DNA from: an uncultured Bacteroidales bacterium
GTDB lineage: Bacteria; Bacteroidota; Bacteroidia; Bacteroidales; FEN-979
Reading direction: 5' to 3'
DNA length: 62,298 bases
Assembly (NCBI GenBank): GCA_903925275.1
Contig: CAIYES010000164.1
Location: forward strand, 1 to 62,298
Shown in pieces: positions 2,900 through 45,036 of this stretch (the first letter of the stretch is position 1; each line of letters starts with the position of its first letter). The notes under the pieces were generated by a model. That model did no database searches, was not told the origin of the DNA, and saw only the letters and a program-made list of their open reading frames with translations. The translations under genes and the position numbers were made by a program.

Positions 2900-3532
2900 A
2901 TGGCAGTATTAGTTGGAAAAAAAGCTCCTTTATTTGAAGCCGAAGCCGTTATCAATGGCGGCGAATTTGTTGACAAGTTCTCACTTGCCCAATACATCGG
3001 AAAAAAACATGTGGTATTTTTCTTTTACCCTCTTGACTTCACGTTTGTCTGTCCCACCGAAATCATCGCTTTCCAGGATAAATTAGCTGAATTCGAGGCA
3101 AGAAATGTTGCAGTTGTAGGATGCTCGGTCGATTCAAAATTTTCACATTGGGCATGGCTCAACACTGAGCTGAAAAATGGCGGGATCAAGGGTGTGAAGT
3201 TCCCGATTGTTTCTGATCTTTCCAAGACCATTTCAGCAAACTATGACGTATTGGCCGGAGAATATGTTTATACTGAAGACGGCATTATGGAATTCGAAGG
3301 AGGCCCTGTTGCTTTACGTGGTCTCTTCCTTATCGACAAACAAGGTATCGTCAGGCACCAGGTTGTTAATGATCTCCCGCTTGGAAGAAGTGTTGATGAA
3401 GCTCTCCGTATGGTGGACGCGCTACAGTTCTTTGAAGAAAACGGTGAAGTTTGCCCTGCAAACTGGCATAAAGGCGACAATGGCATGAAAGCAACCGCCG
3501 AAGGTGTTGCCGATTATCTGAGTAAACACTGA
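2900..3532 (+). CDS. Typical 2-Cys peroxiredoxin (AhpC/TSA family)
   Basis: Peroxidatic Cys motif DFTFVCPTE and resolving Cys motif GEVCPANW. The 210-aa length fits the family. Confidence 0.92.
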   Translation: MAVLVGKKAPLFEAEAVINGGEFVDKFSLAQYIGKKHVVFFFYPLDFTFVCPTEIIAFQDKLAEFEARNVAVVGCSVDSKFSHWAWLNTELKNGGIKGVKFPIVSDLSKTISANYDVLAGEYVYTEDGIMEFEGGPVALRGLFLIDKQGIVRHQVVNDLPLGRSVDEALRMVDALQFFEENGEVCPANWHKGDNGMKATAEGVADYLSKH

Positions 3533-22960: not shown

Positions 22961-23008
22961 AAATAGCGAAATAGCGAGGTAGCGAAATAGCGAAATAGCG
23001 AAATAGCG
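22961..23008. repeat. Tandem octamer array (AAATAGCG)x6, one unit variant AGGTAGCG
   Basis: Read directly from the sequence. It fills most of the 66-bp spacer between the permease stop (23024) and the thyA ATG (22957). Confidence 0.95.
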
Positions 23009-23023
23009 AAATAAAAAAATTAG

Positions 23024-27523: not shown

Positions 27524-27558
27524 TGACAAATGACGAATGACAAATGACAAGTGACAAA
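27524..27558. repeat. Tandem heptamer array (TGACAAA)x5 with variants TGACGAA and TGACAAG
   Basis: Read directly from the sequence. It begins 3 nt after the hppA terminator T tract. Confidence 0.9.
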
Positions 27559-27631
27559 TTTTACAAATAAAAAAGTTTAAGGCAACCTTTGGGGGGAGTT
27601 GTGTTATCTTTATGCAGGATAATGAATTCAT

Positions 27632-28216
27632 GTGGAGGAAGCACTGATAAAGAAAGCTATTGCCCGGGATATTAGCGCCATTGAAGCGTTGTATGACCAG
27701 TATGCACCAACTTTACTAAGCGTTTGTTTCCGATATTGCGGCAACCGGGATGATGCTGAAGACATACTTCATGATGGTTTTATCAAGATAATACAGAATA
27801 TTCATACATTCAGAATTCGTTCCGGAGCAACCCTGGAAGCATGGATGAGGCGGATCATGGTCAATACCGCCCTGAATTTTTTACGGACCCGGTCGAAAGA
27901 GAAAAACTTCGTCGATATCAATCCAATTCTTGATACAATTGATATTCACGATGAGGAGGTTTCCGACCCTGAGGAAATCTATCTTCAGGTGGACCGGGAA
28001 AAGATATTGGAACTTATCTGTGATCTGCCTGCAGGCTACAGGACGGTATTCAACCTTTACGTTTTTGAACAATACGGGCATAAGGAGATTGCAGAACTCC
28101 TCGGATGCTCCGAAAATACATCCAAGTCGCAGCTTTCAAAAGCCCGTGGCTTGCTGAGAAAAAAAATAAACAAACTGGTCAATATCAAAACAACACCAGC
28201 CTATGAAAAAGTATAA
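27632..28216 (+). CDS. ECF-type RNA polymerase sigma-70 factor
   Basis: Region 2 (DAEDILHDGFIKI, EAWMRRIMVNTALNFLR) and region 4 (YRTVFNLYVFEQYGHKEIAELLGCSENTSKSQLSKAR). The start is a GTG at 27632. Its end overlaps the next gene by 14 nt. Confidence 0.88.
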   Translation: MEEALIKKAIARDISAIEALYDQYAPTLLSVCFRYCGNRDDAEDILHDGFIKIIQNIHTFRIRSGATLEAWMRRIMVNTALNFLRTRSKEKNFVDINPILDTIDIHDEEVSDPEEIYLQVDREKILELICDLPAGYRTVFNLYVFEQYGHKEIAELLGCSENTSKSQLSKARGLLRKKINKLVNIKTTPAYEKV

Positions 28217-29612
28217 TCATCCATCCGACGAATTCTTCAGGGAGGCGCTAAAGGATCATCGGATGGAGCCTTCAGATGCAGCCAGGAAGGCCTTCCTGAA
28301 AGATGTCTCAGCGCTTCCCGCAGTATCTAAGAAGGGGAGAACAGGGTTAATCGTTTTGTCAGCAGCTATTGCATTGGTTGGCATGGGAATCATTCTCTGG
28401 TTCGCAACAGAAAAGAAATCGTCTGTTTCCTCCGCAAACGATATCAAATATACTGCACAACAATCGGTAAGGGCTGAAAATTTTCAGCCCAAACAACCAC
28501 AACAGGTAGGGGTTGAAAATATTCAATCCCAACAACCACCACAACAGGTAGGGGTTGAAAATATTCAATCCCACCAACAACCAAAAAAGGTAGGGGCTGA
28601 AAATATTCAACCCAAACAACAACAACAACAACAACAACAACAATCAGTAAGGGCTGAAAATTTTCAGCCCCAACGACAACCACAATCGGGGATGATTAAA
28701 TCTCCGGTTCTTACAAGTGAAGCAGAAACAACCGCCTTGACCGCAATTAACAATCAGGTTGCGATTATTTCTGAACCGCCTGCCAAATCAATTGATGACA
28801 TTTCAGTCAATCCTTCGGTGACAAACTCCGATACAACCGTACATATTAAAAAGCCAGATTCACCAATACCACCTGTTTCCGGGGCAAGAGAAACACCTCC
28901 GCCTACCTACAGAGAAACCAAAAAAATGACGCCTTTCATAGGGGTTTATTACACGCCGGAATGGATGTTCAACACACTGGAGGGAACAAAATTCGTCAAC
29001 AACTTCGGACTTGAAGGAACTTTCCATTTCGGCAGGTTCTCCATTCGGACAGGAGCCGGTTTTTCCATTACCAAAGGCACCAATGAACTGATTGTGGCGT
29101 ACAATGATTTTCTGGGCTCCTATAATAAATTAGACTCCATGAAATTTACATGGAACAATCCTGCACAGCAATATGTCCCGAAATTATACATGAGCAACCA
29201 GGATGTATGGGATAGTTTGATGAAAGTTGACTATGCAAGAGTAGTAAAAAGATATACCTATCTGCAGATTCCCATGATCATGGGGTATGATTTCGTTCAA
29301 TCTGACAAAATTTCGGTTGGTGTACGTGTAGGACCTGTTTTGTCGGTACTGCTGGCGACAAAACAATTATCGGCTGCGTATGATCCGGGCAATAAAAGGG
29401 TTGTCAGTATAAACGATATTGCACCCGAACAGGTCAGCCTCAACTGGCAGGCGATGGCCGGACTCAACACATCTATTCGTGTGACAAAAGCGTTGCAGTT
29501 TGAAGCAGAACCCTCAATCAGGTATTATTTTAACTCAGTTTATGAAAAACCAGTGCCTTCATGGAAGCCATGGTCGATCAGCATTCGCCTCGCAATGATG
29601 TTGTATTTTTAA
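28203..29612 (+). CDS. Anti-sigma-like membrane protein with an internal repeat region and a C-terminal outer-membrane beta-barrel-like domain
   Basis: Translationally coupled to the ECF sigma gene. It has a short cytoplasmic N-terminus, one TM helix (LIVLSAAIALVGMGIILWF), a Q/P-rich repeat region, and then beta-strand-rich sequence ending in an aromatic residue (MMLYF). Confidence 0.6.
   Translation: MKKYNHPSDEFFREALKDHRMEPSDAARKAFLKDVSALPAVSKKGRTGLIVLSAAIALVGMGIILWFATEKKSSVSSANDIKYTAQQSVRAENFQPKQPQQVGVENIQSQQPPQQVGVENIQSHQQPKKVGAENIQPKQQQQQQQQQSVRAENFQPQRQPQSGMIKSPVLTSEAETTALTAINNQVAIISEPPAKSIDDISVNPSVTNSDTTVHIKKPDSPIPPVSGARETPPPTYRETKKMTPFIGVYYTPEWMFNTLEGTKFVNNFGLEGTFHFGRFSIRTGAGFSITKGTNELIVAYNDFLGSYNKLDSMKFTWNNPAQQYVPKLYMSNQDVWDSLMKVDYARVVKRYTYLQIPMIMGYDFVQSDKISVGVRVGPVLSVLLATKQLSAAYDPGNKRVVSINDIAPEQVSLNWQAMAGLNTSIRVTKALQFEAEPSIRYYFNSVYEKPVPSWKPWSISIRLAMMLYF
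28467..28671. repeat. Five in-frame copies of a 20-24 bp palindrome (GGGCTGAAAATTTTCAGCCC and variants) plus (CAA)9
   Basis: Copies at 28467-28490, 28506-28530, 28548-28572, 28590-28613 and 28647-28671. The first and last contain a perfect 20-bp palindrome. Copy-to-copy distances are 39, 42, 42 and 57 bp. (CAA)9 lies at 28617-28643. Confidence 0.9.
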
Positions 29613-35066: not shown

Positions 35067-35112
35067 GGAAATGGTGAAATGGTGAAATGGTGAAATGGTG
35101 AAATGGTGAAAC
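35067..35112. repeat. Tandem octamer array (GGTGAAAT), about 6 units
   Basis: Starts at the first base after the gcvP TAG. Four perfect internal units are flanked by two degenerate end units. Confidence 0.92.
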
Positions 35113-42715: not shown

Positions 42716-44104
42716 ATGAATTATGATATTATCGTGATAGGGAGTGGTCCGGGAGGATATGTTGCTGCAATCAGGGCAGCTCAGCTTGGAATGAAAGTCG
42801 GCGTGGTCGAACGTGCTGAATTGGGTGGAATTTGCCTGAATTGGGGTTGCATTCCAACAAAGGCATTGCTTAAGAGCGCCTCTGTATTTCAATATTTGCA
42901 GCATGCCGCTGAATATGGAATTTCGGCTGGGGAAGCCAAAGCCGATTTCCCGGCTATTATCAAGCGCAGCCGTGATGTTGCCGACCAGATGAGCAAGGGG
43001 ATCCAATTCCTTTTAAAGAAAAATAAGGTTGAACACATCCAGGGTTTCGGAAAAGTGAAACCCGGAAAAATAGTGGAGGTGACCGATAGTTCAGGGACAA
43101 CAACAGAATATCCGGCAAATCATATCATCATCGCTACCGGTGCACGTTCGCGGGAGCTTACAAACCTCCCACAGGATGGCAAAAAGATCATCGGTTACCG
43201 TGAGGCCATGACCCTGCCGGAACAACCCAAATCAATGGTGGTGGTCGGTTCAGGCGCTATTGGCTCCGAGTTTGCATGGTTTTATCACTCAATCGGCACT
43301 AAAGTAACACTTGTTGAAGTATTGCCGAATGTTGTTCCTGTGGAGGATGAAGAAGTTTCAAAAGTGTTGGAACGTTCGTTCAAAAAGGCCGGCATGAAAG
43401 TAATGACAGGCGTTTCGGTTGAATCGGTTGATACCAGCGGGGAAGGTTGTAGCGTTGTCATACAGACAAAAAAAGGTCAGGAGATCATTGCATGCGATGT
43501 CGTTTTATCGGCAGTGGGCATTGCCACAAACATCGAAGGGATCGGATTGGAAGATGTCGGGATTGTAACTGAACGCGGAAAAGTGGTTGTTGATGATTTT
43601 TATAAGACCAACGTTGATGGCTACTATGCCATTGGCGATATTGTACGCGGGCCAGCGCTCGCGCACGTTGCTTCACACGAGGGTATTTTATGTGTGGAGA
43701 AAATCGCCGGGAAACAGGTTGAACCACTTGATTATGGCAATATACCCGGATGTACTTACACGCATCCGGAGATTGCATCGGTTGGGATGACTGAAAAAGC
43801 TGCCAGAGAAGCCGGCTATGAAATACTGGTGGGAAAATTTCCGTTTACTGCATCGGGAAAAGCAACTGCCTCAGGGGCACGTGATGGGTTTATCAAAGTG
43901 GTTTTCGATGCAAAATATGGCGAATGGCTTGGCGCCCATATGATTGGCGACAATGTTACCGAGCTGATCGCCGAAGTGGTCGTGGCAAGGAAATTGGAAA
44001 CCACCGGCAAAGAGATCATCGAATCGGTTCACCCCCACCCGACTATGTCGGAAGCGATTATGGAGGCGGTGGCCCAGGCCTATGGGGAGTGCATTCACCT
44101 GTAG
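42716..44104 (+). CDS. lpdA: Dihydrolipoyl dehydrogenase
   Basis: GSGPGGYVAAIRAAQLG FAD motif, redox-active GGICLNWGCIPTK, a second GxGxxG, and C-terminal HPHPTMSE. Confidence 0.95.
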   Translation: MNYDIIVIGSGPGGYVAAIRAAQLGMKVGVVERAELGGICLNWGCIPTKALLKSASVFQYLQHAAEYGISAGEAKADFPAIIKRSRDVADQMSKGIQFLLKKNKVEHIQGFGKVKPGKIVEVTDSSGTTTEYPANHIIIATGARSRELTNLPQDGKKIIGYREAMTLPEQPKSMVVVGSGAIGSEFAWFYHSIGTKVTLVEVLPNVVPVEDEEVSKVLERSFKKAGMKVMTGVSVESVDTSGEGCSVVIQTKKGQEIIACDVVLSAVGIATNIEGIGLEDVGIVTERGKVVVDDFYKTNVDGYYAIGDIVRGPALAHVASHEGILCVEKIAGKQVEPLDYGNIPGCTYTHPEIASVGMTEKAAREAGYEILVGKFPFTASGKATASGARDGFIKVVFDAKYGEWLGAHMIGDNVTELIAEVVVARKLETTGKEIIESVHPHPTMSEAIMEAVAQAYGECIHL

Positions 44105-44212
44105 CAATGCAAGCAATGCAGACAATGCAAGCAATGCAGACAATTCAAGCAATGCAGACAATGCAGACAATGCAAGCAGTGCAGACAATGCAAGCAATGC
44201 AAGGAATGCAGA
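44105..44212. repeat. Tandem nonamer array, 12 units (CAATGCAAG / CAATGCAGA)
   Basis: Counted unit by unit. It starts at the first base after the lpdA TAG. Confidence 0.97.
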
Positions 44213-44370: not shown

Positions 44371-44390
44371 AATTCAAGTTAACTGATATG

Positions 44391-44480
44391 TCTGCATTGT
44401 CTGCATTGCTTGCATTGTCTGCATTGTCTGCATTGTCTGCATTATCTGCATTGTCTGCATTGTTTGCATTGTTTGCATTA
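44391..44480. repeat. Tandem nonamer array, 10 units (TCTGCATTG / CTTGCATTG), reverse complement of the 44105-44212 array
   Basis: Counted unit by unit. It ends 13 nt before the rfbC ATG. Confidence 0.97.
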
Positions 44481-44493
44481 AAAATAAAAAGTT

Positions 44494-45036
44494 ATGGAAA
44501 TCATTCGCACACCCTTAGAGGGATTATTGATCATCAAGCCAGATGTGTTTGAGGATGAGCGCGGTTATTTTTTTGAATCGTTCAGCCATGAGAAATTCTT
44601 CAAAGTCGGACTTGATCTTACATTCGTTCAGGACAATGAATCGAGGTCGAAAAAAAATGTCCTTCGCGGTCTTCATTTCCAGGCTCCGCCATTTGCCCAG
44701 GGAAAATTAGTGCGGGTAATGCGAGGCTCGGTGCTGGATGTTGCTGTTGATATCCGGAATGGCTCCCCTACTTATGGCAAATGGGAGTCGATCGTACTTA
44801 CCGGGAAAAATAAATGGATGTATTGGATTCCTGCCGGATTCGCACATGGTTTTGCAACCCTGGAGGATGATACCATTTTTTTCTACAAATGTACCAACGT
44901 TTACAACAAAGCTTCGGAAGGCAGCATCAACCTGAATGATCCGGATCTGAACATTGACTGGGGAATAAAGGATCCGGTGATTTCCGAAAAAGATAAGGTT
45001 TCTCCTGTGTTCCAGGGGTTTGTAAGTCCTTTTTGA
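44494..45036 (+). CDS. rfbC: dTDP-4-dehydrorhamnose 3,5-epimerase
   Basis: DERGYFFESF, LRGLHFQ, QGKLVRV and AHGF motifs. 180 aa. Confidence 0.94.
   Translation: MEIIRTPLEGLLIIKPDVFEDERGYFFESFSHEKFFKVGLDLTFVQDNESRSKKNVLRGLHFQAPPFAQGKLVRVMRGSVLDVAVDIRNGSPTYGKWESIVLTGKNKWMYWIPAGFAHGFATLEDDTIFFYKCTNVYNKASEGSINLNDPDLNIDWGIKDPVISEKDKVSPVFQGFVSPF

Follow-up and report, generated by a model that had tools for sequence, protein, structure and literature searches.

Why should a gene for a predicted envelope protein carry five hairpin-forming DNA palindromes, all of them read in the same frame? This question is raised by contig CAIYES010000164.1 (assembly GCA_903925275.1) of an uncultured Bacteroidales bacterium from a freshwater habitat, the full 62,298 nt of which are referred to in the following as the window. 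An entire array of palindromes, together with an AAC/CAA tract, lies within its open reading frame (ORF) 28203..29612 (plus strand, 469 aa). The array very likely derives from a repetitive extragenic palindromic (REP) element of the GTAG double-foot family that entered the gene, the propagating unit being DNA.

The palindrome array and its reading frame

The perfect 20-nt palindrome GGGCTGAAAATTTTCAGCCC is found at 28471-28490 and again at 28651-28670. Three degenerate copies lie between these two, GTAGGGGTTGAAAATATTCAATCCC at 28506 and 28548 and GTAGGGGCTGAAAATATTCAACCC at 28590 (starts including the GTAG foot). Start-to-start spacings of the five copies are 39, 42, 42 and 57 nt, each divisible by three, and the array is composed as follows.

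28467..28494, plus strand: REP copy 1 (type A), GTAA-GGGCTGAAAATTTTCAGCCC-AAAC, a perfect 20-nt palindrome, encoding VRAENFQPK
28506..28533, plus strand: REP copy 2 (type B), GTAG-GGGTTGAAAATATTCAATCC-CAAC, encoding VGVENIQSQ
28548..28575, plus strand: REP copy 3 (type B), 38 of 40 nt identical to copy 2 including the spacer, encoding VGVENIQSH
28590..28617, plus strand: REP copy 4 (A/B hybrid), GTAG-GGGCTGAAAATATTCAACCC-AAAC, encoding VGAENIQPK
28615..28643, plus strand: poly-Q-encoding tract of 9.7 AAC/CAA units that separates copies 4 and 5 (100% matches in Tandem Repeats Finder)
28647..28674, plus strand: REP copy 5 (type A), GTAA-GGGCTGAAAATTTTCAGCCC-CAAC, a perfect palindrome, encoding VRAENFQPQ

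A previous sequence-only reading of the window had given the same coordinates for two perfect and three degenerate copies, spacings in multiples of three within an open ORF, and the peptides SVRAENFQP and VGVENIQS, all of which are confirmed here, with VGAENIQP as further array peptide. Its (CAA)9 tract likewise corresponds to the 9.7 units listed above. The palindrome length had been put at 20-24 bp; the lower value holds for the perfect copies, while 24 nt is not reached and in the degenerate copies a stem of 8-9 bp encloses a loop of 4 nt. Over all five copies, stems comprise 8-10 bp and loops 0-4 nt. The stem bottom starts with GGG in every copy and ends with CCC, except for a G-T wobble or mismatch in copies 2-4.

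When folded as single-stranded DNA, four of the five copies form hairpins with z-scores between -4.2 and -5.1 (copy 1, -5.05 at -8.5 kcal/mol; copy 2, -4.15; copy 3, -4.21; copy 5, -4.62). In copy 2, the 9-bp stem remains paired although C-G is replaced by T-A and one G-T wobble is present. The hairpin of copy 4, which has one C-A stem mismatch and two mismatches to the palindrome, is weaker (z = -2.27). The RNA fold of the whole array reaches z = -10 compared to shuffled sequences. At up to three mismatches the window holds three matches to the palindrome versus 0.01 expected from shuffles, and a chance palindrome was rejected on these numbers. A CRISPR-like array was discarded as well, the spacers themselves being repeated and the units lying in frame, and so were intrinsic terminators inside the gene, as there is no T-run on the coding strand and a terminator scan gave no credible match. 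The array is absent from curated families, residues 85-160 of the encoded protein being without Pfam or NCBIfam match, and all matches from an Rfam scan of the array remain far below gathering scores.

Repeat collapse or expansion during metagenome assembly could in principle produce such an array as an artefact or chimera, and Logan contigs (short-read unitigs) indeed break within it. However, the array and its surroundings, 3,410 bp in total, recur without a single difference in L121, which was assembled independently from another sample; the protein from a third sample (P0001) has the same copy number with one amino-acid change, and the host ORF remains open. As independent assemblies agree, the array is taken as real, and the probability of an artefact is practically negligible. 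In Logan contigs of a related population, the array is composed differently, and 9 nt are deleted in frame at 28491, directly after copy 1.

The frame in which the units are read is dictated by the palindrome itself. As read directly from the sequence, GTA GGG GCT GAA AAT TTT CAG CCC CTA C is an open frame, while the +1 frame stops at the TAG in the foot and the +2 frame at the TGA within GGCTGA. Since the palindrome is its own reverse complement, the restriction applies equally to the opposite strand, leaving one stop-free frame only on either strand. Consequently, any surviving intragenic copy reads V-G/R-A-E-N-F-Q-P. The same symmetry explains why reverse-strand ORFs are open across the array, 28359..28643(-) and 28444..28683(-), as had also been remarked in the sequence-only reading.

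The palindrome in other genomes and its link to RAYT genes

By scanning one genome per species (596 Gb) for the exact 20-mer, GGGCTGAAAATTTTCAGCCC was located in at least 116 loci (L001-L116, with 122 occurrences), in coding as well as non-coding DNA, compared to about 0.5 expected by chance for 596 Gb according to our own arithmetic. The exact 20-mer was not found in the published literature searched. An exact 54-mer spanning copy 5 of the window is without match in the genome collection, and a search for the locus by protein, dominated by its poly-Q pattern, gave only two relatives at 47-48% identity. Among the matches listed, to which all following counts of hosts and flanks refer, the palindrome resides mostly in Bacteroidota, and also in Planctomycetota, Chloroflexota, Fibrobacterota, lineages of the candidate phyla radiation (CPR), Cloacimonadota, Ignavibacteriaceae and others. 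Some metagenome-assembled genomes (MAGs) carry it on several contigs, 10 in Chitinophagia WB8_1A_246 and seven each in Saprospiraceae maxbin.128 and Fibrimonadales Co191P4bin13. Although only the 20-mer itself had been searched for, GTAG precedes the palindrome in 45 and CTAC follows it in 50 of the 122 occurrences, with the full 28-nt unit GTAG-GGGCTGAAAATTTTCAGCCC-CTAC (GTAGGGGCTGAAAATTTTCAGCCCCTAC) in 33. GTAA is the second commonest left flank (18/122) and CAAC recurs on the right (10/122), and the GTAA...CAAC form of copy 5 is present in Fibrimonadales and at other loci as well. For the identical GTAGGGGCTGAAAATTTTCAGCCCCTAC across phyla, either movement of a transposase-REP system between phyla or convergence of the sequence has to be assumed.

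More than 90 other occurrences are for the most part located outside long ORFs, and a few resemble plain terminators, an A-run preceding and a T-run following the hairpin. At 22 fetched loci the palindrome lies within an open frame of at least 150 codons, and all of these read [VGR]AENFQP. Hosts confirmed by Pfam as unrelated proteins are a UvrD helicase, an RsmI-like methylase, AroD-AroE, a NuoF-like subunit, LeuRS, RecJ and an MmeI-like methyltransferase; further in-frame hosts are an HsdM-like gene and predicted Fibrimonadales proteins of about 1,500-1,700 aa, in which the palindrome encodes the last residues. This occurrence of one DNA sequence within and between genes elsewhere supports the earlier proposal that the palindrome propagates and the peptide is its passenger. 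In many loci (L008, L029, L074, L082, L095, L113) the DNA outside the feet is palindromic too, which gives the impression of an element placed in the loop of a pre-existing hairpin or terminator.

In two Bacteroidota genomes, the palindrome is associated with a gene for a REP-associated tyrosine transposase (RAYT). The Y1_Tnp gene of a Flavipsychrobacter MAG (L021, 3498..4127, 209 aa, above the Pfam threshold) is flanked by exact palindromes at 3400 and 4191 and contains a third copy, which reads VGAENFQPL just past the HuH motif MPNHVHGII. A 45%-identical RAYT of a Bacteroidales MAG (L068) bears VGAENIQPLRSPGDNIQPLR at the same internal place and is accompanied by an exact copy about 150 nt downstream. 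Both proteins show the HuH NH[IV]H, WQ and YIxNNP-like motifs. The respective RAYT (subclass 2.4) REPtrons span 3400-4210 in L021 and 3582-4320 in L068. At least 7,865 RAYT homologues exist, several of which are JGI-named as "REP element-mobilizing transposase RayT". In nearly all of the best 120 of them, VGxxNFxPL-type peptides follow the HuH motif, often as partial tandem repeats within this loop (for example, VGAENVGAENVGAENFLPL). The type B (VGVENIQS) and type A (V[G/R]AENFQP) peptides of the window correspond to two peptide subfamilies among these RAYT homologues.

An in-frame REP within the transposase gene is a published hallmark of TnpA_REP/RAYT subclass 2.4, equivalent to Bertels group 4, and the double-foot REPs of this subclass have already been described (Quentin, 2018; PMC6006769) with GT[AG]G as 5' foot, C[TC]AC as 3' foot and a stem whose lowest three pairs are G-C. 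Going by sequence, the palindrome has the build of GTAG-tagged REPs (Di Nocera, 2013; PMC3733652) and, more specifically, matches this double-foot type as linked to subclass 2.4 in other genomes. Common to both are the short hairpin, the three consecutive G-C pairs, which are also present in the window copies, and, in the window at copies 2-4, the GT[AG]G foot, with the reverse-complement foot in most copies elsewhere. Also shared are the distribution over Bacteroidota and scattered phyla and the in-frame location leaving ORFs unbroken, and the identical sequence both flanks and sits inside the subclass 2.4 RAYT genes of L021 and L068. The in-frame REP of subclass 2.4 is known in outline (Quentin, 2018), and at least 7,865 homologues represent a striking scale.

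In the window, the 5' foot is GTAG in copies 2-4 and GTAA in copies 1 and 5, and the 3' feet of copies 1-5 are AAAC, CAAC, CACC, AAAC and CAAC. Owing to these non-canonical feet (GTAA; CAAC/AAAC/CACC), the window copies are filed as diverged derivatives; they look like descendants of the GTAG double-foot family and not like canonical units. Also different from described GTAG double-foot REPs is the head-to-tail arrangement of five units within one gene. The comparison with RPEs (Rickettsia palindromic elements) made in the sequence-only reading holds for the behaviour, insertion in frame, and not for the identity of the element, which by its features is assigned to the GTAG double-foot REPs.

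Host protein, orthologues and persistence of the dyads

The gene harboring the array starts within the end of a sigma factor gene, and the features of both are as follows.

27632..28216, plus strand: gene for an extracytoplasmic function (ECF)-type sigma-70 factor (Pfam Sigma70_r2, Sigma70_r4_2), overlapping the host gene start by 14 nt
28203..29612, plus strand: host gene, 469 aa (ORF list, AlphaFold2, Foldseek)
28338..28409, plus strand: predicted transmembrane (TM) helix, residues 46-69 (AlphaFold2 helix; hydrophobic GLIVLSAAIALVGMGIILWFA)
28422..28871, plus strand: disordered hypervariable linker, residues 74-223 (predicted local distance difference test, pLDDT, < 50), containing the REP array
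28929..29606, plus strand: C-terminal beta-barrel, residues 243-468 (AlphaFold2 strands, pLDDT up to 98)

The sigma factor is assigned by NCBIfam sigma70-ECF at 99.6 bits (cut-off 42.9), and the order H+-PPase, sigma factor, host gene is common to the window, L117 and L121. AlphaFold2 modeling of the host protein from a 60-sequence alignment predicts a short cytoplasmic N-terminus with two short helices, one TM helix, a disordered linker of about 150 aa and a C-terminal 8-stranded OmpA/OmpX-like beta-barrel. Foldseek matches of the barrel are OmpA, NspA, Ail, OmpX and OmpW (target TM-score 0.55-0.70), whereas the Pfam OMP_b-brl_2 match is weak and no Pfam model for the whole protein was found. 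With a TM helix and an OmpA-like barrel, the modeled protein appears to span from the inner to the outer membrane, the repeats (residues 85-160) being placed in the spacer between them. The linker between TM helix and barrel had been regarded as tolerant to insertions, in line with the disorder predicted here and with its hypervariability, as there are no conserved columns in the linker among 60 homologues.

Host protein homologues number 303 at E <= 1e-5, the best 120 of which, mostly full-length, were compared. AEN[FI]QP repeats are present in three of the 120, namely the window protein, P0002 (81% identical, from the same sample as P0001) and P0003 (54% identical). In the remaining 117, linkers of similar length but unrelated sequence are found, and total protein length is 444-493 aa (5th-95th percentile). 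As no more than three of 120 carry the repeats, the segment is, on this alignment, an addition in a small sub-lineage, in agreement with the insertion that the sequence-only reading had envisaged. Within this sub-lineage it is the fastest-changing segment of the protein. Compared to P0002, only 31 of 83 columns are identical over the array and 32 are gaps, while the barrel is 96%, the N-terminus 88% and the remaining linker 73% identical. Repeat copy number and arrangement also differ in P0002, which possesses poly-Q runs as well. In another homologue, P0028, residues 150-215 (approximately) of the same linker form a different repeat, IVNPSIQSSIVNPPIVNP and so on; repetitive DNA of another kind may have been taken up by this linker in other lineages.

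The layout of the window array is A-B-B-B'-A, with copy 4 as hybrid of both types. Copies share not only the palindrome but also the spacer, 38/40 nt being identical between copies 2 and 3 and 36/40 between copies 1 and 5 (including 12 nt upstream). Tandem duplication of units made up of palindrome and spacer, rather than five insertions, is inferred from this shared spacer sequence as the way in which the array grew. Half-unit or whole-unit tandem repeats of the palindrome are also found in L004, L035, L039, L078, L093, L104 and L117. Relative to type A, the left arm of type B has T for C and its right arm A for G, so that a C-G pair has been exchanged for T-A in a compensatory manner. At the peptide level, this exchange replaces A by V, and an accompanying C to T replaces P by S with a G-T wobble; the stem is kept. 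Elsewhere, the type B variant was only detected in L120, within an intergenic cluster of GGGGTTGAAAATATTCAACCCC copies.

The gene for P0003 (L117) allows comparison of the array at DNA level over a long divergence. Its barrel is 75% identical at the protein level, and in the corresponding DNA only 26 of 72 4-fold degenerate sites are identical (36%, compared to 25% expected from composition), hence near saturation. L117 has four units with a 33-nt period, feet including GTAG and, at the 3' side, CTGC, CTAC, CTGC and CAAC. The last unit is a perfect 8-bp stem, while copies 2 and 3 are weak and decaying. In stark contrast to the saturated sites, the palindrome core GGGCTGAAAAT[T/A]TTCAGCCC is identical at 19 of 20 positions between window and L117, including all six codon third positions, indicating that the DNA and not the peptide is conserved. 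The converse, the same peptides encoded by non-palindromic DNA, was not seen, as L117, the only repeat-bearing orthologue compared as DNA, employs dyad-symmetric DNA.

These data bear on whether the array might be an ordinary protein tandem repeat selected for (V/S)(G/R)AEN(F/I)QP, for example, as a periplasmic interaction motif, with the DNA dyad being coincidental. Retention of the peptides at roughly the same linker place in three related proteins and the frame-preserving nature of all indels would fit such a role. However, the same DNA recurs more than 90 times elsewhere, mostly outside long ORFs, and also occurs in genes for unrelated proteins, codon third positions are identical across saturated divergence, and variant copies change amino acids while base pairing is preserved. 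In addition, there is no Pfam repeat family, and the motif is missing in 117 of 120 homologues. Dyad persistence and stem-keeping changes, as read from these sequences, argue against selection at the peptide level, which is graded as already largely refuted and thus very improbable.

Several findings also weigh against derivation from an inserted REP. The canonical 3' foot C[TC]AC is present in none of the five window copies, and GTAA replaces GT[AG]G at the 5' foot of two. The 62-kb contig contains neither a dispersed copy, with no other palindrome or similar GTAG hairpin elsewhere in it, nor a RAYT homologue, as searched by tblastn with the L021 protein. The palindrome family is likewise absent from the 20-kb stretches around two orthologues (L118, L119). 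Moreover, two perfect palindromes persist and the core is near-identical in the orthologue at saturated divergence, so that a single old neutral insertion is insufficient as explanation. Persistence of the dyads would require either repeated seeding, conversion from a genomic pool, or constraint at the DNA/RNA level.

A constraint of this kind could arise if the REP-derived hairpins had been co-opted for a DNA or RNA function in the host gene, adding selection on the dyads, either as mRNA structure slowing translation or stabilizing the sigma operon transcript, or as a hotspot of slippage or RAYT targeting which tunes linker length; a REP origin is compatible with both. The two copies that are still perfect 20-nt palindromes, the 19/20 core in L117 despite near-saturated 4-fold sites, the compensatory stem change in type B and the RNA fold (z = -10) would agree with co-option, as would the narrow range of protein lengths (444-493 aa), according to which linker length may matter. 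Besides, REPs have been assigned roles in mRNA stability and termination (PMC3733652). Nevertheless, 117 of 120 homologues do without such hairpins, decay is seen in copy 4 as well as in copies 2 and 3 of L117 (z = -1.1 to -2.3), and P0002, at 81% identity, has another number and arrangement of copies. In addition, neither an Rfam family nor a terminator-like context on the coding strand was found, and repeated seeding from the genomic REP pool also explains persistence. Co-option is therefore regarded as unlikely.

Active maintenance of the dyads in the gene lineage, by RAYT re-seeding of the linker or by selection of mRNA/DNA structures, appears equally doubtful. Either version would explain the 19/20 core between saturated orthologues. 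With re-seeding, in which an existing REP is the preferred target, the linker would be a self-renewing source of variation in an envelope-spanning sigma regulator; with hairpins selected as structures, these would control expression of the sigma-linked gene.

The favored REP origin might have proceeded as follows. One or two REP units would have entered the DNA for the disordered linker of the envelope-spanning protein encoded after the ECF sigma gene, presumably in a RAYT-mediated process on single-stranded DNA. Genic copies would survive only in the frame reading V-G/R-A-E-N-F-Q-P. Subsequently, tandem duplication or slippage of palindrome-plus-spacer units might have enlarged and changed the array, with selection retaining length changes divisible by three. 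For the protein the insert would be neutral, tolerated because the linker appears unconstrained in sequence while similar in length across homologues.

Relation to described systems and other repeats of the window

Intragenic REPs occurring in frame as units, dimers and clusters have been surveyed previously (Di Nocera, De Gregorio and Rocco, 2013; PMC3733652). The clusters reported there encode 43-82 aa, comparable to about 70 aa in the window array, and are thought to be tolerated in flexible linkers. Presence of the palindrome in UvrD, RecJ and LeuRS echoes the enrichment in repair and tRNA-synthetase genes found in that survey. In contrast, its GTAG REPs are from Proteobacteria, Cyanobacteria, Chloroflexi and the Planctomycetes-Verrucomicrobia-Chlamydiae (PVC) group, with only CGTC REPs in Bacteroidetes, and head-to-tail arrays are rare. 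A sigma-linked envelope-spanning barrel protein is not among the hosts in this description as consulted for the comparison.

RPEs resemble the window array in behaviour, not in membership, as they are palindromes inserted in frame into genes that stay open, thereby adding a peptide. By description rather than sequence comparison, RPE-4 and RPE-6 have been placed among tagged REPs of the CGTC super-family and RPE-1 is a longer palindromic insertion (PMC3733652), whereas the window units are 28-nt hairpins of GTAG type. In addition, RPEs are described in Rickettsia, with no RAYT association described for them. The REPINs (REP doublets forming hairpins) and BIMEs (bacterial interspersed mosaic elements) of Pseudomonas and E. 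coli share with the present REP family clustered REP units, regular spacing, the link to a single-copy RAYT and spread within a genome. However, REPINs are inverted REP pairs, intergenic and connected to RAYT groups 2 and 3, while in the window near-perfect self-palindromes follow each other head to tail in coding DNA and are linked to group 4/subclass 2.4.

Both intragenic in-frame REPs and this REP/RAYT class are thus already published, and the window array is an additional example, by which the known range of intragenic GTAG REP arrays is widened to include an uncultured Bacteroidales organism from fresh water. Three points go beyond the literature consulted: one and the same 28-mer is found in many phyla, the core persists between orthologues whose synonymous divergence is saturated, and five units of two subtypes form an array in a sigma-linked, apparently envelope-spanning protein. 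The phylum spread and core persistence could inform how RAYT-REP systems of subclass 2.4 spread. If derived as proposed, the array is a clear example of a selfish DNA hairpin turned into protein, in which built-in stops set the frame, a disordered linker absorbs the insert and tandem duplication builds the repeat segment. For annotation it is useful that VGAENFQPL-type motifs in metagenomic proteins mark REP insertions.

The window contains further repeats. Large and unusual are two inverted tandem arrays of 9-nt units at 44103-44210 and 44389-44479, (AGCAATGCA / CAATGCAGA) x 12 and (TGTCTGCAT) x 10, which flank an AT-rich core of about 180 nt between ORF 42716..44104(+) and ORF 44494..45036(+). 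Tandem arrays of 7-8 nt units are found at 22961-23013 (AAATAGCG, x 6.6), 27524-27559 (TGACAAA, x 5) and 35068-35111 (GAAATGGT, x 5.5), and presumably resemble the short tandemly repeated repetitive (STRR) heptamers of cyanobacteria. The TGACAAA array directly follows a terminator-like hairpin and precedes the ECF sigma gene by about 70 nt. Comparable arrays of 7-9 nt units abut the GTAG palindrome elsewhere, at L013, L020, L031, L049, L085, L090, L093 and L106.

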